Virus record (IMG/VR): IMGVR_UViG_3300006903_000012
From: a virus
Strand: one strand, 5' to 3'
DNA length: 64,000 nucleotides
Made by a program: the position numbers and the translations under genes. Below are positions 1 to 61,923 of the stretch, one piece after another; position 1 is the stretch's first letter; every line of letters begins with the position of its first letter. Under the pieces are notes generated by a model. It did no database searches and was not told the origin of the DNA. It saw nothing but the letters and a program-made list of their open reading frames with translations.

Positions 1-377
1 CTTGTCACATCGGCATCAGATGCTTTATATGGATCAGGTCTCTTTTGTCTCATCTTCCCGGCATGTGTTCCTTGATCGTGCTTGCCGGGAAAGTGCTTTT
101 CCGATAACGATTTCTGATTCTGCTTAGCAACAAATGCTAACAATTCATCAGGATCAATTTCTATTTCTCCGCCACCGAAATTATGTGCGCCAAGATGCGC
201 TTCTGGAATCGATTTCTCGTGCTTGAAATACTCGACTTCAGCCAGACGCTTTGTGGCCCAGTCTTTACTAGGTCCGCAACCTAGATTTCTTTTTCCGTCT
301 TCACTAACCACACACCACTGATTGCCTTTTTTCTTAATCCGCTTTTCAACCAACTCGCTGATTACAAAGTCGGCCAT
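1..377 (-). CDS. virion-module protein; only the N-terminal ~125 codons are present because the gene runs off the left window edge
   Basis: Hand translation. The ATG at 375-377 overlaps the stop of the portal fusion by 16 nt and the frame stays open to coordinate 1 (MADFVISELVEKRIKKKGNQW...). It is missing from the ORF track because it has no stop in the window. It carries KHFPGKHDQGTHAG. Confidence 0.65.
   Translation of the reverse strand, partial: MADFVISELVEKRIKKKGNQWCVVSEDGKRNLGCGPSKDWATKRLAEVEYFKHEKSIPEAHLGAHNFGGGEIEIDPDELLAFVAKQNQKSLSEKHFPGKHDQGTHAGKMRQKRPDPYKASDADVT
57..98 (-). repeat. His-rich linker motif copy (KHFPGKHDQGTHAG)
   Basis: Direct translation of the minus strand. One of 8 copies of K-H-x-[PA]-G-x-H-[DN]-Q-x-x-H-[AG]-[GR]. 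Confidence 0.9.
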
Positions 378-3300
378 GTTTTGTCATCCTCAATTCGTCC
401 TAAAATTTCATAATGTTGCCGACCTACTGGCCGAGCTTGAATTTTTTGCAGCCAATTTTCTAAGGCTTGATTTGAATTGAACGCCATCACATCTGTTATT
501 TTTGTAACCGGATCGCCAGCGTTATCAACTTCTTCTTTGACACGCACCGTTCGTCCGTCTATTTGTAAATTCTTCAGTCGCTTTAATTTCTCAAAATTTC
601 CACGATTGAAGAAATTCAAATCCGGCGGGCGTCCATCATCTGGATCATGTACACCAGAATAACCAGTGCCAGTATAGAACGCTTTCTGCTCTAGCTCAGA
701 ATATTTAGAATCATATTCATCCATCCACATTCTCAAAGACAGATGATTAATACTATTAACATGAACACTTTGATCTGGTAAATCTACATCATCAAAATAA
801 AAATAACCTTTGCCTTTAACAAGTTCTGTTTTCGTCCTGCCCGTAACCTTCAGTGCTCGATTAACTTGAGCAACTGTTTTAGGAGTTTTACTGAAATCCA
901 TTCCTGATTCTTTTTCCAAATTTCCTGCATGAGTCTTCTGATCGTGTTTGCCAGCTTGGTGTTTAACTAAAATCTCATACCCATCTTTTTGTAACTGTCG
1001 CGCCGCTTGTTTCAACTCACCTTCAACAATAAGACTCTTAACAACTATTGGCAACTCATCATCGAAATCATATTTCCCATTATTACTCTTTACGACTGAT
1101 CGAACTAATGCCGGCATCTCAGGTTTGTAATATTCAAACCCATAATGCAGCACCATGTCTAAAAAGTCTTCATAGTAACGCTTCAAGTTCTCGTCATTGA
1201 CCGATTGTAGATCTTCTGTCTTAGCCCGGTCTTTGATAAACTGCTCAAATTCTTTTCGATATTGTCCGGGGATTTTTTCAGCATAGCTATCAAATCCCAA
1301 AAGTGATTTTTCAGTCTTGGAATTACCAAAAAGATAAAACTCTTTTTCATTTCCCAGATACAACCACACCCCAAACACATCCCATGTTACTGCTAATTCT
1401 TTCTCAGCCCCCATTGAAGTTAACTGGTTATCTGAAACTGTTACATGGGGTTTATATCCGCCCGCTTCCCACGTTCGATCTGGTGCCTGCCCATTCGACA
1501 ACAAACCCGCCACCAAATCATCATGTAGATGTTTTAGGGCGGGTGTGATTTTGACTTCTGCCACAGACACTTCTTGCAGGGTTATTATAGTGCCGGTCAG
1601 GTTGAGTGTCAAGGATTTTTGATCGTATTCAGAACACACTTTTTCGATAGTTTTTCTTATCGCCAGTGAGTCAAAATACCGATCCATTTTTCCTAAGTAA
1701 ACTAGTGTGATATGTGGCTCAGACTTTTTGAAATCTAACAGGTTAACTATCTCATTCGGGACCGATAGAGCAATCATACAGGTATCATCATGCTCAGCTT
1801 TTTCTTCAACTATCTTCGACCCTTTGATTCCCTTAGCTCCAAAAATCTTGGCTCGGCCCGCTCGGATATCATCTATCGGCAAATCACCTACATCCACCAA
1901 AGCCGCTTCAACATACTCATCGGCATCGGTGCCCCATACAATTCCTGCATAAGCATAATTGCCGCCGAGCACATCTATCTCACTGTCACTAATTACCGGC
2001 ACCAGACTATATTGTTGTAGATAATGCTGCGCATCGGCTACACTATCAAACCGAGACCGCTTACCAATTTGATCGGGCTGACCCCATGAATTCATGGGAA
2101 GAGATTTTTCTTTAATGGTTGTGCGATATGTTTTGTCGCCTTCTGGATCCTTCCAATCTGAAACAACCTTAACCTTTGTATTGCCTGGAACACCGAAATA
2201 CTCAAGTCCACTCAAAGCTGATTTTAGATTCTGATAGGCCCGATCTTCATTATTTCCAGCTCCCATCTGACCAAAGGCTGAACCGATCCACGGATCACCT
2301 CCCTCGGTATCTACTAGAACAAGCCGAACTGCTCGATTAAATGCCGCCTGTGATAACTCGGCACTATATGCAAGCTCATGGTGACTTGTATCATTCTCAA
2401 TCTGGCGACCCGCATACCACTTTCCATCTACTTTAATTAATAAAAGATTGAGATGTTTCTTAATTTCAGACTTTGTCGGGTGCCAGAACTTGTCTCGTTG
2501 ATAGCTCCCGGGACCAAGCTCTGAGTAATATGACACACTGGGTTTACTAAATTTGTGCTCAACCGCAGGTTTACCAATATCTTCTGGCACAGGAGTAGAA
2601 GAAAGAGCGCCGGCATGCTTTTTCTGATTATGCTTTCCCGGTTGGTGTTTCTCAACTGCTTTCTTATTTTCAGCAATAATTCGTTGCGTCTCTTGTTCCA
2701 GAATTTCTTTCAGCTTCGCATTCGACTCATCACCGTTCCAATAATGTCCGCCATCTTTCAAAAAGTCTTCGAATTCTTTTGGGTTCGACTGCAAGTTGCA
2801 ATGGCAAGTCATGGGATGCGCCGGTGGATGTTGTGTTGTCTCACCGTCGAACACCGTTTCATACTCAAAGTCTAAAGGCACAAATCCTTGCTCTTCATTT
2901 TGAGTACAAATATCACACACATCGTACCCACGCGTGATCCAACCTTTAGTCTTCAATCCCACTGCTGTCATTTGATCTAGAGTCGCCCGAGAATCAGCCC
3001 AATTCAATTCCGTATTTACAATTGAACGAATGCGCGACTCACTTAACTTACCAGCATCTTTCTTAAATTTCAAACCAAAAAGATTCGCCTGGATATAATC
3101 GACAATTTCTTCGCTGCTCAAACCATTATCATAACCAGTCAAAATATTTTGCCGAAGGAAATATTTTGTTCCACTATCGACATGCTGAACTAATGTGGCT
3201 GCTCGTGCATCTAACAGATCAATCACCGACGGATTAGTCAGAATGAACTGAAATTCTTTTGGTAACGTCAGTCGATCAGCCAAACCCGCTTCAAACATTT

Positions 3301-5438
3301 GCTGCTGAATATCTTGAACAGCCGTCAGAGAGCCTTCAGAATATGCTTGCCGCAAAATATCTAACAACTGATCTTGAATATCAGGCAGACAATACCAATC
3401 TTGCTCATTTAGAATATCGTCGAGTTTTTCAGATGCGGTAATTTCCGCTTTTTCTATTAAATCAATTTTAGATTTTTCTTCATGGTTAATATTCCATTCC
3501 CAGATCTTTCCAGTTTTTGTTTCAGATATGATCTTACCCCCAAGAGCTTCGTTCATTGAATTTGGCCGAATATTACCATGCTCAACATAAGCTCTAACAG
3601 AGTTAATACCCGACGATGCAAGTAACTTAAATATAGCATTTGCTGTTTCTTTTCCAAATCCAGAACCAGAACGTGACGAATCTATTCGATTGAAGTAGGC
3701 ATAATCACGATCATTATTGGGTAACTCTACTGTTGCAGTTACTACTATATCATCTTTAGGAAGTGCATTTTCTAACCAATTTTCTTTTCTTAACCTATCG
3801 TTTATTTTAGCATCAAAGAAGAGCCTGTCGCCGGATTGAGTAACAGTTATGTCTAACCTATCTGTGTGAATTTTACTGGGAATATTATCTTTTTTACCAT
3901 ACTCACCAGCATGTGATTCTTGATCGTGCTTGCCGGGGAGGTGTTTTTGTATTTCGTTATCTAACTCAACCAAACTTTTATACTCTTCAAGCGGCGCAAC
4001 TAATTCTTCCAAATGCTCAATAGTTAACTGATTACCGACTTGCTTAAAAGACTCTTGCAGTAATTTGCTAAACTTCTTAACTGTCTCACTTGAGTTTCTT
4101 AATTGCTTGCCGTCCGCTAACAAATCTTCCGCCAGCGATTTAGCATATTGTTGCATCTCGCTGTAAGCACTGTCTATTTGATCGAGAGCTTCAGGTTTGT
4201 TAGCATCTTCTTGCAGGCCACCGATCGCTTCAGTATCTTGATCGATAGAATCCAGACTATCACTAGGGAAACTATCCATACCTTCAAGCCCCGGAGCCGC
4301 TGGTAACCCGCTTGTTTTCACGTCAATAATTTTCCACGCCTCAGCTTGTTTCTGAGCATCAATCGGTTTCAAGATCGGTTGATTACCAGTCAAAGTCATT
4401 AGCATCGTTGCACGTTTACCAGCCAGATCTGCTTGCACACTCGTCTCGCCGGTCATATCAATTTTGAACTTGAACTTGAACCCAGATGCAGTCGACATCA
4501 GAATCTTTGTATTAATGAGATCCTCGACTAATTGAGCATAGAAACCAGTGCCCGCTCGCGACGATACTTTTGAAGACGCTTCCACACCCGCCAATGTACG
4601 ATCATGCTCAAAGATTCGCAAATCGCCAATTGACAATCCAAACGCAGCACACACCATTTCAGCAAAACGTTTGAAATTCTCAATCATATTCACATCAGCC
4701 GGCGAAAGAGTTAATGGAATAAATCTCGCCGGCTTTGTGTGATCGTACAACAGTGGCATTTTCATGGGATCAATGTCATTCCACATTTCGCGGAAACCTG
4801 TTGCCCATGCGATTGCTTCTGCTTCAGACATATCCATAACATCCAAAATCCCAGCCATCGGTGTGTTACCCAATTGCTTGAGATAATAAAGATAGATGCG
4901 CGAGAGAGCTTCAATCGATAAAAATGCACTTTCAACTGGCGCTTCTTGAAATACTTTGCGAGTCAAATCAGTTCGTGGTTGAGTAATCAAACGAATCACA
5001 TCGCCACGACCAAAATAAACTCGATCTAATCCATTATAGGGATTGATCTGTACAAACGGAATGTCGCGATCATAGGTGGGGTATAATGTTTCACCATCAA
5101 TATGATAGAGACCACCAATGATTCCGTCCATTTCAGGATTCGCCACAACTTCAGCATTTCCCGCAATGGGGAGAATTAGAGCATCTTGCAGCATGCGCGA
5201 CAACCATACGTCCCAACCATCACCATCATCTGCATCCGCCAGAACTTTCTCGAGATACATTTTCATCTCGCCTTGTTCTTCTGGCTTATCACTAACTATT
5301 TCCCATTCCAAAGATACAAGTTCGCGCAAGATATGCCGAATACAAAGCTTTGTAATCGGCTCCGTCGCAACTTGATACTTCCACTGAGCTACCGACAAGC
5401 GAGTTGGGTTAGCTAAATAAAGCGGTTGCAATTTGTTA
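362..5438 (-). CDS. portal protein fused to MuF-like, GNAT-like, repeated-module and 2H-phosphoesterase-like domains (exon 2 of a split gene)
   Basis: Continuous 1689-codon ORF. The N-terminal ~380 aa look portal-like. Downstream lies an SPP1 gp7/Mu F-like head-morphogenesis domain ending in HPMTCHCNL. There is no ATG or SD at the track start (TTG 5431); see the intron and exon 1 features. Confidence 0.8.
923..964 (-). repeat. His-rich linker motif copy (KHQAGKHDQKTHAG)
   Basis: Direct translation. Confidence 0.9.
1325..1785 (-). other. 2H phosphoesterase (LigT-like) domain inside the portal fusion
   Basis: Two H-x-T/S-x motifs at typical spacing: EPHITLVYLG and YKPHVTVSD. Confidence 0.55.
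2100..2540 (-). other. repeated ~130-aa module (copy in the portal fusion)
   Basis: ...KWYAGRQ...HHELAYSA...VRLVLV...AYQNLKSALSGLEYFGVP...TTIKEKSL aligns by eye with three segments of ORF 8085-10835. Confidence 0.5.
2609..2650 (-). repeat. His-rich linker motif copy (KHQPGKHNQKKHAG)
   Basis: Direct translation. Confidence 0.9.
2790..3260 (-). other. Mu F / SPP1 gp7-like minor head protein domain
   Basis: ...SRIRSIVNTELNWADSRA...GWITRGYDVCDICTQNE...HPPAHPMTCHCNL resembles the family, including the C-terminal HPxCxC-type motif. Confidence 0.65.
3490..3860 (-). other. possible GNAT-type acetyltransferase domain
   Basis: RSGSGFGKETANAIFKLL...VRAYVEHGNIRPNSMNEALGG resembles the GNAT motif A (R/Q-x-x-G-x-G/A) and the downstream N...S...G segment. 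Confidence 0.35.
3905..3946 (-). repeat. His-rich linker motif copy (KHLPGKHDQESHAG)
   Basis: Direct translation. Confidence 0.9.
4310..5438 (-). other. portal domain
   Basis: Size, position at the head-module start, and general portal-like pattern (...EPITKLCIRHILRELVSLEWEIV..., ...ILDVMDMSEAEAIAW...). The family was not verified. Confidence 0.55.
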
Positions 5439-5699
5439 CAAAGTCTTACAGACCTTTGAGTAAGTCATTTCTGCTCACTTCTTGCAATTCCTATTTCTTG
5501 CAAGTTCAGACTATATCATTATCTTTCTTCAAGATAGTTCCCACATAGTCGTTACACACTTCCGCAGATGCGGGTTGGCTCGGTATTTGGACTCTCACCA
5601 TTCACCGAATTCGAGAACTGTTACAACATCCATTACTGGATGAAGCCGCCAAGTTGACGGGTTAAGTAGGGGGGCGGTTGCTGTATACTCGTCGGCGCA
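5439..5699 (-). mobile_element. ORF-less group I intron (~261 nt) in the portal gene
   Basis: On the minus strand: R-like GUGUAACGACUAUGUGGG (5540-5557), and S-like GAUAUAGUC (5509-5517) pairing with it as P7. P3 is CCUAC (5666-5670) with GUGGG. A GNRA hairpin lies at 5627-5642, P8 at 5520-5536, P9 at 5481-5504. P1 is GUCGGU/GCCGAC (5691-5705) with U.G at the splice site. The terminal G is at 5439. Splicing restores the frame. Confidence 0.7.
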
Positions 5700-5731
5700 A
5701 CCGACTTCTGTACAATAAGTTCATCTGCCAT
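5700..5731 (-). CDS. portal gene exon 1 (MADELIVQKS + 2 nt)
   Basis: The ATG at 5729-5731 lies 8 nt after AGGAG (5740-5744). The 32 nt end in GU and join to U at 5438 to give V-NKLQPLYLANP in frame. Confidence 0.6.
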
Positions 5732-6593
5732 CAATATTTCTCCTGAGAAATAATTTCTCAACCCGAGCAACTTGCTCTTTTGTGTTCTTCAAAAGTTTTG
5801 TATCCCAAATCACAATAACCTTATACCCTGCATCTTTATATGCTTGAATTCTTTTCTTATCTCTTGGATTATCTTTCGCATGCCAGTAGACACCAAAAAG
5901 CTCAACAATTATTTTCTTATTGGTATTTACAAAATCTGGGTTAAACCTATTTACCCAAAATGCACCGTTACCCACATATCTAAAACCAAATCGCTTTAGA
6001 TATCTCATCAGAAGTTTTTCTGGTTTATTTGGACTTCTAGGTTCTAATCGTTTCTCAATAACTGCATCTTTCTCACTATCTGACAAACCATCCCAATATT
6101 TTCTGAGTGATTTAGAAAGTTTATCTGACCTGAGTTGCTTAGCTTTCCTTGGTGTACGCAACCAAGTTTCGGTAACAGATTGCGAAATCTTTTTAGCTAT
6201 TTCTTGTTCTTCCTCGGCAGTTCGTCTTTTGTGTACTCGCTTAATCGCTTTCGACAAACTTTTACGAAATTCAGCATCACGCTCAGGAGTAAAGTTTCTT
6301 CTGGCTTCCGCTGATTTCCTACCAATTCGTTGTCTTTCTTCTATCGGTACCTTAGCATGTCTTTTCTTTTGAATCCTTGAAATTCGAGCACAAACTTCGG
6401 CAGAGTATTTATTGCCCTTGTTGGGCGATGGTCGACCCAAATTCTGGACAGACAGCAGAAACTTAGTCTCATCACTCATCACTCGACCGTTGTGATGATT
6501 GATAAATCGTCTTCCAAAATTCGCTCGTTCACCACATCCACATAGACACAACGGTCCTTTTTTAGATTTAGACTTTTGTTTTCGGCCTGCCAT
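5721..6593 (-). CDS. free-standing homing endonuclease, Vsr-like PD-(D/E)xK nuclease C-terminal domain
   Basis: N-terminal CLCGCGERANF...HHNGR Zn-finger-like motif, then basic helical repeats. The C-terminus FNPDFVNTNKKIIVELFGVYWHAKDN...VIVIWD resembles the Vsr / EDxHD-type endonuclease core. The stop lies inside portal exon 1. Confidence 0.65.
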   Translation of the reverse strand: MAGRKQKSKSKKGPLCLCGCGERANFGRRFINHHNGRVMSDETKFLLSVQNLGRPSPNKGNKYSAEVCARISRIQKKRHAKVPIEERQRIGRKSAEARRNFTPERDAEFRKSLSKAIKRVHKRRTAEEEQEIAKKISQSVTETWLRTPRKAKQLRSDKLSKSLRKYWDGLSDSEKDAVIEKRLEPRSPNKPEKLLMRYLKRFGFRYVGNGAFWVNRFNPDFVNTNKKIIVELFGVYWHAKDNPRDKKRIQAYKDAGYKVIVIWDTKLLKNTKEQVARVEKLFLRRNIDGR

Positions 6594-6622
6594 AATAGAC
6601 TAATCTCTTTTCACCAATAAAT

Positions 6623-7075
6623 TTATACCGGCAGAATCGCCACAATTTTTACTCTAAATGTATCTTCACTAATTGTCTGAGTCACGGTAAATCTAGTCCG
6701 TCGACTAGCACCCCGAAGTGTCAAGGTCGCTGAAGAAGCAAACATCGCAACCCCAGCCACATCCCATCGCAATAAAAATTCATCATCAACCTGTGATCGG
6801 TGCACTAATTCTTTCGACCAATCTGTATAACTATATGTAATTTCTTCAGGTTCAGAGTCTTCGACAGAAACACTATGTGATCGAAATAATTTTGTAGTTG
6901 AATCGACTAACGCAGAATTTGCAGATCCAGATAAAGCTGCAAATAAGTTAGGATAATTCTTTCTAACCTGGGCCGCATGTTGACCTAAATCCATCAGCGC
7001 TTCATCATAAGCCACTTCACCCGAAAAGACTTTCTCTAAAGCTGCTAACACCGCATCTAATTCTTTATTTGCCAT
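6623..7075 (-). CDS. hypothetical protein (head module)
   Basis: 150-aa minus-strand ORF between polyvalent genes. No motif recognised. Confidence 0.6.
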   Translation of the reverse strand: MANKELDAVLAALEKVFSGEVAYDEALMDLGQHAAQVRKNYPNLFAALSGSANSALVDSTTKLFRSHSVSVEDSEPEEITYSYTDWSKELVHRSQVDDEFLLRWDVAGVAMFASSATLTLRGASRRTRFTVTQTISEDTFRVKIVAILPV

Positions 7076-7104
7076 ATAATATTTTCTCGATTCAATCTAT
7101 CGTC

Positions 7105-8088
7105 TTATAAATTAGATTTCTCTTTAATAAAAAATGCCGATGCAGGAGGTGTCGGTTCGTCCGAATATCCTTCCCAATCATCGGGAGTTTTATCACTTAA
7201 AAAATTAGTTAGGAATTCTGCACGTTTTGGATATCGTTCAGAAAAATAATCAGGAAGAGTGTAAAACAATTCAACTGACGTTGCAAAATCTTCTGACAAA
7301 TTAGTCTTACTTAGATGTGCAGAATGGATTTGTCTAGCGTTTTTCTTCTCACTATTGATTACATTTTTCCAAAGCTTAGATCTGCTAAAACTTAAAGAAC
7401 CCTTACTGGCACCCATTGCAGCGTCCAAATTATGTGCCAACTCGTGAATCGCTGACCGTTCATCGGTATAATTCAAAACTGGTGGATGAGAGTCTTGTTC
7501 TTCAAGTGGACGACTCACTACGGAAAATGTCCCAGCAATTCCAGTAACAAACCCTTTCTTTCTAGAAAAAACTCTCTTCCTATATTTAGAAATTTCATTC
7601 TTTGCCCAAGACGGAAATCTTCCTAAAGCCTGCTCATAAACCGCTGCATCGTTCTCGTAAGTCGCAAAATTTCTAACCATCGAACCAGCATGCGTTTTCT
7701 GGTCATGCTGGCCGGGCAAATGCTTTCCAATACTTCCACTTGTCTCTTTCCGGCCCACTAACATCTTCAATCGCCCCTTCGGCGTCAATAGCAACGTCCG
7801 AGTTGTACCACCTGCACTACCATTACTTGTTTCTAACTGCTCAACTAAACCTTGTCGCACTAATTCGTGAATCTCATTTTTGTGCTGCATCCAATAAACA
7901 TCTGAAAGTGCGTGACCTTCAGTTTCTATTTTGTAGAGAATTTCAGATTCGAAATTAGATTGGCCGAGTTGAGATTCGTCGATATTAGACTTTTCAACAG
8001 ATGCTCGTCTCTTCGGATCATGCAAAGAATGTATCTCAGTAACTAAATCAAGAACATAGTTCCCATCGCTATCAGTATAAATTTTCAT
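7105..8088 (-). CDS. zincin-like metallopeptidase with N-terminal domain and His-rich linker
   Basis: HExxH (IHELAHNLD) with a downstream EDFATSVELF as a possible third ligand region. KHLPGQHDQKTHAG lies between the two halves. There is a 4-nt overlap with the upstream gene. Confidence 0.6.
   Translation of the reverse strand: MKIYTDSDGNYVLDLVTEIHSLHDPKRRASVEKSNIDESQLGQSNFESEILYKIETEGHALSDVYWMQHKNEIHELVRQGLVEQLETSNGSAGGTTRTLLLTPKGRLKMLVGRKETSGSIGKHLPGQHDQKTHAGSMVRNFATYENDAAVYEQALGRFPSWAKNEISKYRKRVFSRKKGFVTGIAGTFSVVSRPLEEQDSHPPVLNYTDERSAIHELAHNLDAAMGASKGSLSFSRSKLWKNVINSEKKNARQIHSAHLSKTNLSEDFATSVELFYTLPDYFSERYPKRAEFLTNFLSDKTPDDWEGYSDEPTPPASAFFIKEKSNL
7684..7725 (-). repeat. His-rich linker motif copy (KHLPGQHDQKTHAG)
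   Basis: Direct translation. Confidence 0.9.
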
Positions 8089-10835
8089 TGATTAATAACC
8101 AAGTCAGCTACAAGTAACGGAGCCTTAAAACTATCTGTCCGAATAGTTGTACTTCTAACTTCTACTTTACCATTAATAATCGGTACAATCTCATGCTCAT
8201 CATTGTATCCAAAATTATTAATTTTATAAGAATATAAAATAGATTCTCTAGGGACATTAACTATAAACATTAACTTTCCTTCAGAAAAATCATGTGCTAC
8301 CTCATAAGTATCTGACCAATGACCGACAGTATCTACATCAGCTAATTTTATACTTCCATTAGCAATTCTTGTAATTAATTCATCAGGAACATCTAAACCT
8401 CTATGAAGCACAACAGAGTTCTCTGGTAATGTCAGTTGTGCTGCAGCCCACATCATATCGAGACCTGGATCATTTTTTCCGGCTGTCCAAGATTTTACTC
8501 TAGATGCTAGCTCGTCGGCACTCCCCTTTTTACCATCATAAAATCTTTCTATACTGACAAATGCAGATAGTACTGATCTATTATAGGGAGTGTTTAAAAT
8601 ACGATCTTTATCTGAAAAAGTAATTCCCAAATCCTCAAACCTTTTTCTGTCATCATATACATAGTTACCCACTTTATATCCCTGCCCCACAGTATTTCTT
8701 ACTGCTTTAACTCCGCCAGCCTTTTTCACAATACCAATCATTTTTCTGGCACGTTCCAACGATTTGTTTTTAGCAATTCCACTTGGTCGCCCATGTGTTA
8801 ACTGATTGTGTCTACCGGGTAAATGCTTCTTAATCTCTTCTCGCAACTTCTCTTTAGCAAGATAATGCTTAACGACTTCATCAAGTCTAGAATCTTGCTC
8901 CAATATCTGATCTGTAGTAAAAGATTCTAACTTGCCATATCCATCATCTAATAATAGCTTTCCCTTATAACCAGCAGACTGTAAACTGGTAGCTAAACTT
9001 AAGACATCGCCTTTAGGCGGCAAATCAGATCGAATATCAAAAAGAGACATTCCGGGCTTAAATTTCTCAGTTGAATAAATATAAATACCAGCAGATGATA
9101 ATGCTATCCGCATGGCTATCATTCGACTACTGTCAGTCTGCCGCAACAAGTTTTTAGCCAGAACAATATGCTCAACTGAAGACCTGCCGGACGGAGCAAA
9201 GACCAACCGATCTTCAGTTGGCAAGTATAAACCGACGACACTGGACGAGTCGTCTTCTTCAGAATTCTCAACCTCTGACAGAACTTTATATGCCTTTGCT
9301 AATTCGTTTTTATTGGACGCTACAATATCATCCCCAGCATGAGATTGTTGATCGTGTAACCCTGCTAAATGTTTTATTTCCTGCACTTCACGGTACACTC
9401 GATCACCCGCATCAATTTGATTACGCAGTTTCGCAATTGTGAAAGCATCACGCGATTGGAGAGCCATCTTTAGTTTATCTTCCAATGAGCGTCGGCGAGA
9501 TATCCAAGCCTTATGAGCACCAGAAGATGTGCCATATTTTTCAATTAGAGATTTTTCTCCAATTGTCGTAGAATAATCGTCTTCTTCATTATTAATATCT
9601 TGAATATATACCTTCATTGATTTTGGTAAACCAAAATACTCAAGACCAGATAAAGCCGATTTTAAATTACGATACGCATCATCACTTCTAGTACTACCTA
9701 AATGATCTGAGAGCGAACTGACTACCAACTTTTCATCTGAACCTTTTACAAGCCTAAGACGAACAGATTTATCGAACTCATCAGAAGAGAGACCAATATC
9801 TGCAGCAAGATCGGCATGCATTGAAATTTTATTTTTAGTTCCTTGTATTGCTGGTTTTGCATACCATTTCTTACCAACTTTCAGTAACAATAAGTTTGAT
9901 CTCCAGAAACTATCATTTTGATAACTATCTTTCAACAAATTAGAGTAATAAATTGTCCCATCTTTAGATTTATGTTTCTCAGCCAATGATGTAGCAATAC
10001 TACTACCATCATTACCACCATGAGTTTTCTGATTATGTTTCCCCGGTTGATGCTTCTCAAACACTATCGGATTCTCATTCTCATCAAATCCCAGCGCGAT
10101 TCTAATTTGCTCAGCTAATTCGGCGGCAGCATCTTTCTTTTTCTTATCTTGGTCGGCACTGATTATTTCGACAGGGCTAATAGGTTGGGGATATTCAGCA
10201 GCAAAATCGGGCAGATACTTGATACTCAATATCGCATCTTGTAATCTTTTGACTGCCAAAGATTTGACCGTCGTCGTAACGACTCGGCCTGAATGCAAAT
10301 CAATTTTAACAGGAGTCTCGGCAGGTATTCCAATTTGATAAAGTTTATCTAGCGCCCAATAAACTTTCTTAACTCTCGGCTCATCATCAGCTGGACCAAC
10401 TATTCCTGTGCCTGAGCGATCTATAGTTATTTGACCTTTCTGATATCTAAACCGAATGCTTGTATCAAACAAATGCCTAATATCCGCATTAGCAGTTATA
10501 TCAGCGTGAACAGCATCAGAATCCAGTGTTGCATAAACATTGCCGTTAGGAGTAACAATAGCTGTTACCTTTTCGTTGTCTATTTCATCATCTTGAAGAT
10601 CTTTTGTAAAATCTGACCAATCATCTACTCGATAGATATTAAATCGTTTAGATCTACCATATTTAGTTGCATCATAAATAAGTTCATTAGAACTCGAAAT
10701 AATATCTTTGCTACTTCCACCCACTTCACCCTTACGACCACTATGTCCAAAGTTTCCAGAACCGACGCCACCTTTAACAACAAGATGCCCAACATCTTGG
10801 ATAATCATTTGTAATCTTTGTCTAGTGTCAAGCAT
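8085..10835 (-). CDS. polyvalent virion protein: three repeated modules, three His-rich linkers, C-terminal ADP-ribosyltransferase-like domain
   Basis: Long ORF. I prefer the ATG at 10835 (MLDTRQ..., AGGAG upstream) to the track start at 10898, which would overlap the upstream gene. Confidence 0.75.
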   Translation of the reverse strand: MLDTRQRLQMIIQDVGHLVVKGGVGSGNFGHSGRKGEVGGSSKDIISSSNELIYDATKYGRSKRFNIYRVDDWSDFTKDLQDDEIDNEKVTAIVTPNGNVYATLDSDAVHADITANADIRHLFDTSIRFRYQKGQITIDRSGTGIVGPADDEPRVKKVYWALDKLYQIGIPAETPVKIDLHSGRVVTTTVKSLAVKRLQDAILSIKYLPDFAAEYPQPISPVEIISADQDKKKKDAAAELAEQIRIALGFDENENPIVFEKHQPGKHNQKTHGGNDGSSIATSLAEKHKSKDGTIYYSNLLKDSYQNDSFWRSNLLLLKVGKKWYAKPAIQGTKNKISMHADLAADIGLSSDEFDKSVRLRLVKGSDEKLVVSSLSDHLGSTRSDDAYRNLKSALSGLEYFGLPKSMKVYIQDINNEEDDYSTTIGEKSLIEKYGTSSGAHKAWISRRRSLEDKLKMALQSRDAFTIAKLRNQIDAGDRVYREVQEIKHLAGLHDQQSHAGDDIVASNKNELAKAYKVLSEVENSEEDDSSSVVGLYLPTEDRLVFAPSGRSSVEHIVLAKNLLRQTDSSRMIAMRIALSSAGIYIYSTEKFKPGMSLFDIRSDLPPKGDVLSLATSLQSAGYKGKLLLDDGYGKLESFTTDQILEQDSRLDEVVKHYLAKEKLREEIKKHLPGRHNQLTHGRPSGIAKNKSLERARKMIGIVKKAGGVKAVRNTVGQGYKVGNYVYDDRKRFEDLGITFSDKDRILNTPYNRSVLSAFVSIERFYDGKKGSADELASRVKSWTAGKNDPGLDMMWAAAQLTLPENSVVLHRGLDVPDELITRIANGSIKLADVDTVGHWSDTYEVAHDFSEGKLMFIVNVPRESILYSYKINNFGYNDEHEIVPIINGKVEVRSTTIRTDSFKAPLLVADLVINQ
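8088..8560 (-). other. ADP-ribosyltransferase (R-S-E type) domain
   Basis: VVLHRG (Arg), then GHWSDT (S-x-S/T) about 30 aa later, then NDEHEIVPI (E-x-E) about 37 aa after that. Order and spacing are typical of R-S-E ARTs. Confidence 0.55.
8787..8828 (-). repeat. His-rich linker motif copy (KHLPGRHNQLTHGR)
   Basis: Direct translation. Confidence 0.9.
9333..9374 (-). repeat. His-rich linker motif copy (KHLAGLHDQQSHAG)
   Basis: Direct translation. Confidence 0.9.
9548..9960 (-). other. repeated ~130-aa module (best-matching copy)
   Basis: ...KKWYAKPA...MHADLAADIG...VRLRLV...AYRNLKSALSGLEYFGLP...TTIGEKSL is the closest match to 2100-2540. Nucleotide similarity is visible at 9640-9680 versus 2200-2240. 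Confidence 0.6.
10014..10055 (-). repeat. His-rich linker motif copy (KHQPGKHNQKTHGG)
   Basis: Direct translation. Confidence 0.9.
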
Positions 10836-10845
10836 CTTGAAACTC

Positions 10846-11055
10846 CTAATCGTGCACTGCACTTTCCAAAAGAATATCCGAACCGGACTCAGTAACATTA
10901 AGTGACGAAAAAGACTTGACCGGATTAGTTAACCCATTACCATCACCAATCCACACTACAAATGGCTCGCCCGTTTCAGAATTAACTTCAGGCAGATCTT
11001 TTACTAACTCTTTCAGTCTTGCAACTGTTAATGGACTATCAAAATTTAAGATCAT
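10846..11055 (-). CDS. hypothetical protein
   Basis: 69-aa ORF with a 4-nt overlap with the upstream gene. Confidence 0.5.
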   Translation of the reverse strand: MILNFDSPLTVARLKELVKDLPEVNSETGEPFVVWIGDGNGLTNPVKSFSSLNVTESGSDILLESAVHD

Positions 11056-26074: not shown

Positions 26075-27637
26075 CTACACCCTCACAAATTTACGTGCAG
26101 CTCGTGGACGAATACTGGCTCCATAGCAAGACATTGAACTAGCTACTGCCAAGTCAATTTTAGCTTTTGTTTTTTCTTTATCTAATCGAAAGCCGCGTTC
26201 AGATTCTTCAGCCACTGCGTTCAAAACATGCGTTCGAAGTGCTGGACTTAAAATTCGATGCAACTTCTTCGTAACTATCCATTGATAAAGTGCATTATCC
26301 GATTCGATGCGTCCAGAGTTCTGTGGAAAATCCACAAAGAGTTTCTTAGAATTATGTGGATCATATTTCTTCCGCAAGTTAGTCATAATGGTATGCAATT
26401 GATAATTATCATAATAGACTGCTTCGACTTTGAAAGTATCTAACAGCCAAATCAGTTTAGCACCGAGAGTTTGCTCCAAATCAATTTCTTTGACATCTGA
26501 CCCTTCGACAACTTGTGGCTTCCATTCCCAGGCCGCAATAATATCTGGTCCTTGTCGATCTAAATCCCAATGTGAGATAACTAATGCCGCACTGTCATTA
26601 TGAACACCAGCATCAGCACCCACAAATAGAAAACGTAGATCACCTTCTTCATTGAGTGATTCGCATTCTTCTAAAACATCCCATTGAGCGGGTTCGATAA
26701 AGACTGATGTACTACTAACCCATTCGTTTTGATGAAGACGTTTATAAGCATTAGGTCGAAGATCGGCACGCTGTTGAATATAATATTCCTCAGTCTGCCA
26801 CGGCATCCGATGTTCATGGCTCCAATAGACTAACATCTTTGACTGTGGAACATAATAAACTGGTAAATCATCAAGTTCAGGAATTTTTTGACCAAGTAAT
26901 TGATTTTCATTGCCGTCTTTAAAAACTTGACAGTATAGATTCCACAAAATATCTGATTCGTTCAAAAATCCGGCGTATGTCTCAACCCAACGAACCGAAA
27001 ATCGCCGAGTCGGGACGGGGGTCATCTCCTCCCACAGTCTCTTTCTGCGCTCTGATGTGTACGCCCACAACTCACTCCACAGTGTTAGTCCAGGATTTCC
27101 TCCGGCTTCGCCTTCATAAGCTGTACCGATAGCTTTGACCTTGGTACCTGTATGCTCATTTGACATTGATGGTTTCTGGTCGGGCACATTCCAACCCAAT
27201 CGCTTGAGAGTCGGGACCATAGCCGCATAGATGCGGCCTTGCGCTTGTTCCTTGTCATTAGCAATTGAAATTATTTCATTGGGTGCTTCAACATAATTTC
27301 CCCAATAAGACCCAGCTAAACCAGCAGATGCTGTCTTACCACTTTTCTTCGGTTCAGACCAAAGAACTGTAGTAATTAATTTTGCCCAGATGCCTTTAAA
27401 AATATATCTAAAAATTCTTTGCTGATGGTCTTCTAGTCTAACAAGTTTTTCAGTTGTTGGGTCAATAAAATTACCGTGCGCCCAGTCAACTATATCTGGT
27501 GGCTCAACCCAAACAGATTCAACAATTGCATTCGATGCTGACTCAGGTGGATCCAATCGATCCGCCAAATCTAAAATTAACTGAGTTGCGAACGGGGCCC
27601 CGTTCGCAACTTGTTTAGGTTTGCTTTTTCGGGGCAT
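26075..27637 (-). CDS. terL: terminase large subunit
   Basis: Walker A-like SEPKKSGKTASAG near the N-terminus and a C-terminal RNase H-like nuclease segment (FLFVGADAGVHNDSAALVISHW). Size is 520 aa. Confidence 0.85.
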   Translation of the reverse strand: MPRKSKPKQVANGAPFATQLILDLADRLDPPESASNAIVESVWVEPPDIVDWAHGNFIDPTTEKLVRLEDHQQRIFRYIFKGIWAKLITTVLWSEPKKSGKTASAGLAGSYWGNYVEAPNEIISIANDKEQAQGRIYAAMVPTLKRLGWNVPDQKPSMSNEHTGTKVKAIGTAYEGEAGGNPGLTLWSELWAYTSERRKRLWEEMTPVPTRRFSVRWVETYAGFLNESDILWNLYCQVFKDGNENQLLGQKIPELDDLPVYYVPQSKMLVYWSHEHRMPWQTEEYYIQQRADLRPNAYKRLHQNEWVSSTSVFIEPAQWDVLEECESLNEEGDLRFLFVGADAGVHNDSAALVISHWDLDRQGPDIIAAWEWKPQVVEGSDVKEIDLEQTLGAKLIWLLDTFKVEAVYYDNYQLHTIMTNLRKKYDPHNSKKLFVDFPQNSGRIESDNALYQWIVTKKLHRILSPALRTHVLNAVAEESERGFRLDKEKTKAKIDLAVASSMSCYGASIRPRAARKFVRV

Positions 27638-60777: not shown

Positions 60778-61923
60778 TTATTTAGCGGGCAGCAAAGCCT
60801 CTACAGCCAAAGCATCGACTGAATTGTCGATACCATCCACACAGGCATTGTAAAGAGAATCATGCACGCTAAATCCGTCCTGCATATCACTATAGGCATC
60901 TAACAAACGCCGCATAGTAATATCAAAACGAAATTTATTAGCGGCGCGCTCTTTTGCAACAGCCATCGCAAAATCAATCATTTTTTGAACTGGTTCTTTA
61001 TCGACATCTACTTCATTCGATTTTAACATCCGGGTCAATTGACCTTTATCTGGAAATCGAACATTGAATGGATATAATCGGTCTTTCAAACTATCCGGTA
61101 AGGGTTTGGTGCCAACCAATCCGGGATTGTAAGTCACCACCAATCGAAAATCTCGATGAACCGGATAAGTTCGGCCATTGATAGTAATTGTAAACGGTGG
61201 CGCTGTGATTGAGTTCAAGAACATGATGGCATCCGGATCAGCACCATTTACTTCGTCAATCTTCGCCCACCAACCCTTGACAACAGCGGTGGCGAACTCA
61301 GCTACTTCAAATCGATGAAGATCAGACATGGCCCCAATTAATTGTCGACCACGTAAGCCCGATTCCGCTCCAATATTCACTAACGGAATCACTTCTTTGG
61401 CAGCTAAGTATTCAACTGCAGATGATTTGCCAATCCCCGGCGGGCCCTTTATCCGAATGCTTTTTCCGTGTGCCATCATTTTAGATCGCAGCCGATCATA
61501 ATAAGATGGCTTGATGAAGAAACTATATTTCTCATTCACATCTGGAATCGGTGGACTTGGTGCCCAAATAATATCTGTCTGACCAGTTGAATTCGGGGTT
61601 GCTATCACATTTGTCGGCACTGATTTTGTTTGTGCTGTTCCAGTTGCAGGTGATGTACCATTTCCTGGCTGAGCAACTGTCACAACAATATTTGGATCAG
61701 TCGGGCGATAATTTAACTTGATAAACTCGCCACGCCGCTTGCCAGTCACATTTGTAAACCAAGCATTCAAAGTGCGGCAGTAATGACGGATCTGATTGTC
61801 ACTCAACCCCGTCCCTTTAGAAATCTCAGTAATCAAAGCTCCCTTCGGCCGATCTTGCATAAATACAACTAACTTATGAACTTCGCTGCTGGTTGAGAGA
61901 TCTAAAAGGATGGGTTGTGGCAT
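60778..61923 (-). CDS. AAA+ ATPase (MoxR/CobS-like)
   Basis: IRIKGPPGIGKSSAVEYLA (Walker A), WAKIDEVNGADPD (Walker B) and RLVVTYNPG. Confidence 0.65.
   Translation of the reverse strand: MPQPILLDLSTSSEVHKLVVFMQDRPKGALITEISKGTGLSDNQIRHYCRTLNAWFTNVTGKRRGEFIKLNYRPTDPNIVVTVAQPGNGTSPATGTAQTKSVPTNVIATPNSTGQTDIIWAPSPPIPDVNEKYSFFIKPSYYDRLRSKMMAHGKSIRIKGPPGIGKSSAVEYLAAKEVIPLVNIGAESGLRGRQLIGAMSDLHRFEVAEFATAVVKGWWAKIDEVNGADPDAIMFLNSITAPPFTITINGRTYPVHRDFRLVVTYNPGLVGTKPLPDSLKDRLYPFNVRFPDKGQLTRMLKSNEVDVDKEPVQKMIDFAMAVAKERAANKFRFDITMRRLLDAYSDMQDGFSVHDSLYNACVDGIDNSVDALAVEALLPAK

Follow-up and report, generated by a model that had tools for sequence, protein, structure and literature searches.

The window analysed here, a 64,000-nucleotide stretch of viral DNA (IMG/VR record IMGVR_UViG_3300006903_000012), carries near its left end a His-rich peptide motif, KHxPGKHDQxxHAG, that recurs in genes of the head module. 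Eight copies had been located by an earlier sequence-only reading, made by a model, and translation of the reverse strand confirmed all of them at exactly those positions on the minus strand; the plus strand gives nonsense. A degenerate nucleotide pattern back-translated from H-x-[PA]-G-x-H-[DN]-Q-x-x-H-[GA] (CAY-N3-SCN-GGN-N3-CAY-RAY-CAR-N6-CAY-GS) matched the 64-kb window eight times, always within 57-10055 on the minus strand, and had no match in 100 dinucleotide-preserving shuffles. No further copies occur in the rest of the window, which holds a replication module and the gene for the large terminase (26075-27637).

The copies are distributed over four genes, gpA to gpD, all on the minus strand. 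Gene gpA (8085-10898) encodes a 937-residue polyprotein (916 residues in the public gene call) composed of a leader, a motif of a second class, a module and then three successive units of His-rich (class-1) motif plus module, the class-1 copies starting at residues 282, 509 and 691. The copy KHQPGKHNQKTHGG (10014-10055, residues 282-295) is the prefix of a duplicated module, KHLAGLHDQQSHAG (9333-9374, residues 509-522) follows, and KHLPGRHNQLTHGR (8787-8828, residues 691-704) lies ahead of a C-terminal module of ~230 residues. The second-class motif of gpA, GSGNFGHSGRKGEVGGS (10713-10763, minus strand, residues ~46-62), is a variant of GGPGSGN[FW]GHxGRPGx[VR]GGS; the sequence-only reading had noticed this Gly/His stretch, which is indeed present, but had taken it for a relative of the His-rich motif, whereas it belongs to a distinct class. 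Neither Pfam nor PHROG gave any match to gpA, and the C-terminus that had looked like an ADP-ribosyltransferase (ART) was borne out by no profile. The adjacent gpB (7105-8088) encodes 327 residues consisting of an N-domain, the copy KHLPGQHDQKTHAG (7684-7725, residues 122-135) and, behind it, a zincin-like metallopeptidase domain with the sequence HELAH, of which residues 213-296 match Pfam Peptidase_M90 (29.9 bits against a cut-off of 26.2).

The longest of these genes within the window, gpC (362-5431), encodes a 1689-residue portal polyprotein with copies at residues 496, 928 and 1490. According to Pfam and PHROG coordinates, the portal domain (residues 15-335) is followed directly by the copy KHLPGKHDQESHAG (3905-3946, residues 496-509), a unit without assignment, a MuF-like domain (residues 668-883) and the copy KHQPGKHNQKKHAG (2609-2650, residues 928-941), the latter being the prefix of the duplicated module; then come a 2H phosphoesterase domain (residues 1234-1335), the copy KHQAGKHDQKTHAG (923-964, residues 1490-1503) and a phrog_9154 domain (residues 1519-1579). 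The portal was matched by phrog_2662 (4e-23) and by Pfam (3.2e-7, under the gathering cut-off), and the MuF-like domain, which is internal and lies behind the portal, by phrog_2468 (1.8e-12). Only the N-terminal 125 residues of gpD are present (1-377, start at ~377, leaving the window at the left), with a small phrog_3684/2859-like domain at residues 9-56 (window ~210-352, minus strand) ahead of the first copy, KHFPGKHDQGTHAG (57-98, residues 95-108). The remainder of gpD, with its other four copies past the window edge, was read from the parent contig L119, a 111.5-kb Logan assembly (SRR5585387); the whole protein has 1106 residues and five copies, which raises the count for the four genes of the phage to at least 12. 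Contrary to the earlier statement, these genes are not strictly consecutive, since two motif-free open reading frames (ORFs) lie between gpB and gpC, one of 150 residues (6623-7075) and one that is homing-endonuclease-like (5721-6593).

The repeated module proposed from the sequence proved to be real. Residues 275-451 of gpA (9546-10076, minus strand) and 921-1111 of gpC (2099-2671, minus strand) share 43% identity (E 2e-31), and the alignment begins at the motif. Among the window copies, codons are mixed at the invariant K, H, G and Q, the same codon being used in 45% of identical residues, and the DNA flanking the copies is only ~31% identical, so that the repeat exists at the level of the peptide and not of the DNA, in line with the selection on the peptide that had been postulated. 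The location of the copies at domain boundaries likewise agrees with the Pfam and PHROG coordinates in gpC and gpB. As for the units named at these boundaries, the portal, MuF-like, 2H and zincin domains were recovered by profile, but the GNAT-like unit of gpC had no profile match.

For a survey of IMG/VR, the window pattern was extended by the codon of the preceding Lys; the carrier and locus statistics given below (logo, positions and neighbours) were drawn from the matches listed, and the loci are partial. Matches to the motif pattern came from at least 118 IMG/VR stretches, a single locus holding as many as 10 copies, while a control with the same codons in reversed order and the same degeneracy had no match there. 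Furthermore, an exhaustive profile search with the eight window copies against 1.84 billion representative proteins returned 466 proteins at E≤1e-3 and 119 at E≤1e-10, most of them with 2-10 copies each; the number 466 is a lower bound, because single copies score below significance. This pattern and profile survey, of the kind proposed along with the sequence-only reading, places the motif in hundreds of proteins, alongside portal, MuF and ART domains.

The logo of 218 unique instances reads [VLI]-x-K-H-[L]-[PA]-G-[QK]-H-[D 86% / N 13%]-Q-x-[ST]-H-[GA]-x-[W/G]-[A/G]-G-G. The motif comprises ~16-20 residues, and beyond positions -4 and +17 the information falls to background, with flanks of ~0.1-0.2 bits. 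Conservation extends to positions outside the search pattern, namely Leu at +1 (67%), Ser or Thr at +9 (84%), a hydrophobic residue at -3 and Trp at +13 (45%), and a Gly-rich stretch is usually present downstream. A relaxed profile recovered ~200 extra copies in the same loci, in which position 2 can be S, Q, E, T or L; even there His0, His5 and His10 are invariant and position 6 is D/N, with E or S only rarely found at this position. The relaxed profile also recovered a short form, K-H-G-x-H-D-Q-K-T-H-G-N-W, that is two residues shorter. The concern that the motif might be a common low-information linker is not borne out, as it is sharply bounded, has unconserved flanks and occurs in hundreds of unrelated proteins. 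There is no HExxH within the motif, and no other catalogued metal-binding signature in Pfam or NCBIfam overlaps it. Ni-assisted hydrolysis at (S/T)-x-H was ruled out, since the conserved Ser/Thr adjoins the His rather than preceding it by two positions.

Position statistics were obtained from 273 carrier ORFs with 375 copies in the IMG/VR loci. Of the 249 non-truncated ORFs, 171 (69%) have their first copy no more than 100 residues from the start, often at residues 10-40 and with a mode at 20-40; in some free-standing proteins with a single module it stands at about residue 10, and MKSVFVFPPLRKHLAGQHDQ is the beginning of some proteins. In general, copies are placed either 10-60 residues behind an N-terminus or between modules. 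Many copies are internal rather than N-terminal, and the spacing from copy to copy has a median of 216 residues and is never below 50. By contrast, not one of 229 last copies is found less than 100 residues from the C-terminus, the median distance being 260. The same trend was seen in the 150 best database proteins, with a single exception 30 residues from the C-terminus. Because first copies are near the start, none in the IMG/VR set is near the C-terminus and successive copies are ~216 residues apart, the motif is a directional N-terminal prefix of each module and not a symmetric linker. The earlier description as a reusable linker therefore holds for a reusable peptide element at module boundaries, but not for the geometry of a linker.

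Comparison of related phages demonstrated how the prefixed modules move. Residues 282-512 of a protein of locus L113, the second of its two modules, match free-standing proteins of 244 and 254 residues in L019 and L021 from residue 25 onwards, and these free-standing proteins have the motif at residue 36. Similarly, residues 300-543 of an L106 protein match residues 20-280 of one from L021, and a 955-residue L113 protein differs from its 716-residue L021 homologue by one extra cassette, inserted between two motifs. Leaders are also swapped, or recombined with modules, at the motif. Judged from these alignments, the unit of short leader, motif and module is a cassette that is duplicated, inserted, fused and split at the motif. 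Single-linkage clustering of the segments between motifs lumped unrelated modules together (a 111-member cluster, 15 of them with HExxH) and was not used for any conclusion.

The variable positions of the motif differ from genome to genome in the manner of dialects. In a comparison restricted to pairs with unrelated downstream modules, identity at these positions was 0.61 within loci and 0.41 between loci, whereas the flanks, taken as a control, gave 0.064 and 0.068, respectively. Codon identity was barely raised (0.52 within and 0.46 between loci), i.e. the codons are not homogenised. Such homogenisation of the peptide without an effect on codons points to a genome-encoded, co-evolving reader acting in trans, and from these sequence comparisons the dialects appear harder to explain by metal binding or self-chemistry alone.

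The second class, [K/D]-G-G-P-G-S-G-N-[F/W]-G-H-x-G-R-P-G-x-[V/R]-G-G-S, has one His and is unrelated in sequence to class 1. It was found in at least 119 IMG/VR stretches (L071 and L127-L245), with up to 9 copies per locus, which makes it at least as widespread there as class 1, and its positions outside the search pattern are 98-100% invariant. Its placement obeys the rule seen for class 1: first copies have a median position of 54, and every copy is at least 84 residues away from the C-terminus. Class-2 copies stand ahead of ART, GNAT, zincin and TopoIB modules and, by eye, behind portal-like proteins; gpA and L071 contain both classes. The class-2 motif is covered by no model of Pfam or NCBIfam, and no cultured relatives were found for the portal C-terminus of a class-2 carrier. 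The IMG identifier prefixes suggest that some class-2 contigs are of isolate-genome and human-microbiome origin. That two unrelated sequences follow one positional rule argues for a role as a signal rather than for a chemistry of three His residues.

Class-1 copies were sought in cultured material. The 22-residue consensus was absent, by tblastn at E≤10, from 50,697 deposited phage genomes and from 72,556 PLSDB plasmids. In control searches, the tblastn consensus recovered 322 high-scoring segment pairs from the fetched loci at the same database size, and a 22-residue peptide of lambda cI was likewise recovered; the negative for culture collections is meaningful, since both controls find their targets. 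Megablast of window positions 1-11000 and tblastn of gpA found no cultured relatives, and tblastn with the carriers of other loci gave matches only in a ParB-like or a small N-terminal domain, never in the motif. In 596 Gb of prokaryote genomes there were seven matching stretches, all in metagenome-assembled genomes, compared with ~2 expected by chance under uniform base composition; one contig binned as Candidatus Nanopelagicales (L120/L123) has three copies. All ten profile-search proteins that were looked up derive from metagenome assemblies and are without names. A word-indexed search with the motif alignment gave 16 candidates, none of them significant, which is a limit of this type of search, and gpB had no homologue except itself in an index of 5.8 billion proteins.

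No established family accounts for the motif either. Motif peptides matched no model in Pfam (E≤10) or NCBIfam (E≤0.1), the sole overlapping profile being the unannotated phrog_2859 (positions ~265-296), and no family is common to 58 multi-copy proteins, the commonest Pfam family, ADPrib_exo_Tox, being present in seven of them. Full-text literature searches with motif strings returned no paper, and term searches of the articles on polyvalent proteins (PMC5512222) and MuF toxins (PMC5576092) revealed no inter-module motif or cleavage site. Whether the motif already bears a family name had been left open by the sequence-only reading; Pfam, NCBIfam, PDB sequences and full-text searches yielded none. 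The motif is thus undescribed in every source searched and, as far as sequence databases indicate, is apparently confined to uncultured phages.

The modules that follow the motif are those expected of polyvalent proteins, a setting that the sequence-only reading had recognised: carriers hold ART, InPase, GNAT, LPD1, ParB and zincin domains, and the multi-copy proteins comprise ADPrib_exo_Tox, ART-PolyVal, PARP, DRAT, InPase, GNAT, TopoIB, LPD1, NUDIX and ParB_N. The carriers are located between the terminase gene and the major capsid gene. Locus L021 has eight consecutive motif genes, including two Alt-like ADP-ribosyltransferases, ParB-like proteins, a 'minor head protein' and a carrier with a zincin-type HEIAH in its C-terminal segment, and directly after them come a head maturation protease and a major capsid protein, both without the motif. 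The commonest motif-free neighbours are portal (35 loci), MuF (24), protease (19) and major capsid protein (17) genes, as well as scaffold genes; where portal, MuF, protease, scaffold and major capsid proteins are encoded separately in motif loci, these genes are devoid of the motif. Where structural domains are fused, the motif comes behind them, as seen for the gpC portal and, by eye, for MuF in L034, proteins of the latter type being composed, by eye and not by profile, of MuF-like, HNH-like, motif and ART-like parts. A MuF domain is found downstream of a motif in L005, L012 and gpC. Zincins were detected in 19 of 35 copy-rich loci, in addition to gpB; this does not establish a zincin as universal partner, although the loci are partial and a missing partner gene is therefore weak evidence. 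Portal families also differ between the phages, phrog_113 being present in many motif loci and phrog_2662 here. WhiB-like regulators are encoded in 17 motif loci (e.g. L112:635-958), and together with the contig binned as Nanopelagicales they indicate that many motif phages probably infect uncultured freshwater Actinobacteria; such hosts may explain the absence of motif phages from culture collections.

Short peptides that direct or divide proteins are familiar from several systems. In encapsulins, cargo-loading peptides, each a short peptide with a flexible Gly-rich linker, steer diverse enzymes into a shell of the HK97 fold; these peptides are mostly C-terminal, have another sequence and bind the shell protein, whereas the present motif is N-terminal or internal. 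In MARTX and other multi-effector toxins several effectors share one chain that is processed by an embedded internal protease, predicted to cut between them after delivery, but the MARTX cleavage sites are simple (after Leu in loops) as compared with a motif of 16 residues. The closest resemblance is to the capsid targeting sequence (CTS) of phage T4, an N-terminal propeptide of ~10-20 residues on IPI-III and Alt that binds the prohead core and is removed by gp21, Alt being a packaged and ejected ADP-ribosyltransferase (PMC9026906, PMC7411985). The CTS is a short N-terminal peptide on unrelated head proteins that include an ADP-ribosyltransferase; first copies of the motif likewise often stand near the start of unrelated proteins, but many copies are internal. 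The CTS is portable and combines targeting and processing site on non-essential, ejected head proteins (PMC9026906, PMC7411985), whereas for the present motif such a function is proposed. In contrast to the CTS of ~10 residues ending in L/I-x-E, the motif has ~16-20 residues, is His-rich and is kept across divergent phages; its logo contains no L/I-x-E and it has no sequence resemblance to the CTS, to which it would correspond in function alone. It also occurs internally and in up to 10 copies per chain, and while the T4 cleavage motif is also present in capsid and scaffold proteins, the corresponding genes here lack the motif. In phiKZ-like giant phages (SPN3US gp245, motif A-X-E), the prohead protease processes ejection or inner-body proteins during maturation, and many proteins inside the head, some of which bear long propeptides, are cut at one common consensus (PMC7411985); this consensus is three residues long and also serves for the major capsid protein, and no His-rich motif of 16 residues is found there.

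For polyvalent proteins, packaging, injection and processing by metallopeptidases (MPTases) were predicted by Iyer, Burroughs, Anand, de Souza & Aravind (2017, PMC5512222), without definition of a cleavage site. Their repertoire, as set out there and for MuF toxins by Jamet et al. (2017, PMC5576092), is that of the motif carriers, i.e. portal or MuF together with ART, zincin MPTase, GNAT, InPase, ParB and LPD1. Both gpC and gpB combine at least two unrelated domains in one chain, and the two proteins also display the portal/MuF association and a zincin-like MPTase. From the fusion to portal and MuF and from the position in the head module we infer that the carriers are packaged and delivered. 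The motif adds an organisational layer to polyvalent proteins and marks a subset that is missing from cultured phages and plasmids and from nearly all prokaryote genomes. A targeting or processing propeptide on head-internal proteins is of a known kind, seen in T4 and giant phages; the present motif has a distinctive directional cassette logic and is undescribed in the sources searched.

The explanation that we prefer, to which we assign a probability of roughly 45%, is that the motif is a capsid-targeting and/or processing signal, comparable to the T4 CTS, for modules carried in the head. Each module of ~200 residues (ART, zincin, GNAT, ParB-like nuclease or 2H) bears its own copy in front, either in a free-standing gene with a leader of 10-60 residues or strung behind portal, MuF and other head proteins. 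A phage-encoded reader would recognise the exposed tag during prohead assembly, and the tag would bring the module into the capsid interior or keep it there. It could also be the cut site at which a phage protease, for which the gpB-type zincin or the prohead protease is a candidate, separates modules or strips leaders, enabling their ejection with the DNA. Cleavage is attractive because a portal subunit with ~1,200 extra residues and effectors would otherwise stay tethered. The comparative data favour a signal that would be read in trans, for targeting and/or cleavage. More tentatively, tailed phages in general might possess portable 'zip-code' peptides of at least two classes (KHLPGQHDQxxHG and GGPGSGNFGHxGRPGxVGGS), by which any protein could be marked for capsid loading and for release as an injected effector in its own right. 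The dialect of each phage would be recognised by an enzyme or receptor dedicated to it, with the zincin as the most attractive choice, in which case the motif would represent the long-predicted cleavage site; this wider picture is possible but still on the doubtful side.

Several points weigh against a targeting or processing signal. Zincins were seen in only about half of the copy-rich loci and no universal partner was found. The genes for major capsid, scaffold and protease lack the motif, and if the prohead protease were the reader, it would need other sites for these three proteins; nor is the absence from structural proteins absolute, since MuF lies downstream of a motif in L005, L012 and gpC. 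With three near-invariant His, Asp/Asn and Gln, the motif is far more constrained than prohead-protease sites or the T4 CTS, and this tight constraint hints at a specific chemistry, for which metal binding and self-cleavage are examples. Targeting does not require the internal copies, and copies behind leaders of 10 residues are not obviously needed for cleavage, so that the dual role is a compromise. No PDB chain contains the motif by sequence search, and AlphaFold predictions made without alignments had mean pLDDT (predicted local distance difference test) values of 33.9 for gpB and 41.0 for residues 776-1106 of gpD, too low for use. The C-terminus of gpD, which by eye resembles an HK97-type prohead protease (FDRD..GDKV, SVAHY, IRISMGF), found no support as such in Pfam, PHROGs or PDB sequence searches, and BLASTP and hhalign comparisons with the phrog_3017-type proteases of other motif phages were equally unsupportive.

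If the targeting role is dropped, the motif would be solely the recognition and cleavage sequence of a protease, either a zincin of the gpB type or the prohead protease, and the short leaders would be propeptides that hold toxic enzymes in an inactive state up to their processing, either in the head or in the newly infected cell, much as MARTX toxins are processed by their internal protease. The motif sits exactly where fusions of portal, MuF and effectors need separating, the Gly-rich segment behind it is presumably flexible, zincins are among the most frequent carrier modules and the dialects fit co-evolution of enzyme and substrate; such processing was, moreover, predicted in PMC5512222. 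This explanation is nevertheless unlikely, as typical sites are shorter and less invariant than the motif, zincins went undetected in 16 of 35 copy-rich loci (these being partial), and the entry of free-standing cargo into the head would be left unexplained. A metal element, in which the three His and the Asp bind Zn2+ or Ni2+ as a hinge or cross-linker, is less probable again. It would draw on the invariance of His0, His5 and His10 with D/N at position 6, kept even in relaxed-profile copies, and on the multivalency of the carriers with their regular spacing of ~216 residues, which could form, with up to 10 stickers per chain in a stickers-and-spacers arrangement, a condensed internal body that dissolves on ejection. 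The spacing between His0 and His5, however, varies (two residues fewer in the short form KHGEHDQ), and Asn replaces Asp in 13% of the copies. A purely metal-binding hinge becomes less likely because class 2 obeys the same positional rule with a single His and because dialects exist, which at non-liganding positions suggest a protein reader, although binding and recognition can coexist.

Chemistry without any partner would account for the lack of a universal one. A self-cleaving linker, in which His-assisted cyclisation of Asp/Asn in H-[DN]-Q breaks the chain without a protease, might be read from the invariant His ahead of a position restricted to D/N and from the invariant Asn and His of class 2. 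Intein C-terminal cleavage, the NPTH site of FlhB/YscU and Asn-Asn cleavage in autotransporters provide parallels, but the idea is purely an analogy of sequence, has no structural context, is at odds with the rare E or S at the D/N position and would not lead one to expect dialects; it is accordingly improbable. A cross-link to the shell by a Lys-Asn/Asp isopeptide or of transglutaminase type was given low weight, covalent anchoring being in conflict with ejection. That the motif has no biochemical function at all and is a passive joint for module shuffling, by micro-homology or as a neutral linker, is highly improbable: the breakpoints of fusion, fission, insertion and leader swap do coincide with the motif, but its scrambled codons leave little DNA homology for recombination, the invariance of its residues over hundreds of divergent phages demands selection at the level of the peptide, and the strict N-terminal polarity would be left unexplained.

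Packaged effectors and polyvalent proteins are thought to be the first strike of a phage against the defences of its host, and apart from T4 and a few giant phages there is no phage for which the way that enzymes enter heads and polyproteins are dismantled is known. A conserved, directional tag delimiting every module would make the processing predicted in PMC5512222 directly testable, and a sequence rule of this kind would split giant unannotated ORFs into modules and list candidate injected effectors of uncultured phages. If the wider zip-code picture is true, the motif would by itself be enough to recognise the injected effectors of uncultured phages, and it would provide a handle for protein delivery by phage capsids. 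It also suggests a compact tag for loading foreign proteins into capsids. Since none of the 50,697 deposited phage genomes searched contains the motif, culture at present offers no view of this biology.

Some further features of the locus and its relatives were recorded. The 2H domain of gpC (window 1427-1732, minus strand; Pfam 4e-10) is a 2',5'-RNA-ligase-like phosphoesterase inside the portal-MuF polyprotein and a plausible candidate for an injected enzyme acting on cyclic-nucleotide or RNA ends. The small domain near the start of gpD (phrog_3684/2859), with the pattern …G-K-W-x-V-x-x-x-x-G-K-x-L-G…E-A-x-x-R-L, recurs in L057, L021 and other loci, where it stands immediately ahead of the motif in 'minor head protein' genes, which are followed by the genes for protease, scaffold and capsid. 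The adjacent N-terminal segment of L057 has matches in Roseobacter CRP and Synechococcus S-CBS phages, in ORFs that bear a capsid or protease annotation. The C-terminal ~190 residues of gpD (L119:17800-18372) are highly conserved with an inserted CxC…CxxC zinc ribbon, and are shared only with the metagenomic proteins P0032 and P0115. The next gene (L119:18383-19954) encodes 523 residues with an N-terminal zinc ribbon and a long acidic, low-complexity centre; it looks scaffold-like and is free of the motif. In the 10 kb that follow, the major capsid gene of the phage could not be found.

Downstream of the scaffold-like gene are two DUF559 ORFs (L119:22325-23032 and L119:23968-24822), and in the same region lies a resolvase-like ORF (L119:21151-21981; weak phrog_9019 match, 1.4e-4). 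The homing-endonuclease-like ORF between gpB and the portal polyprotein (window 5721-6593, minus strand) is of the NUMOD3/Vsr/DUF559 kind, and the head module seems heavily colonised by selfish nucleases. Finally, a 381-residue ORF near the other end of the window (60778-61923, minus strand) matches a PHROG annotated 'porphyrin biosynthesis' (3.4e-19) and, on the basis of this match, is a possible auxiliary metabolic gene in a phage of ~111 kb.

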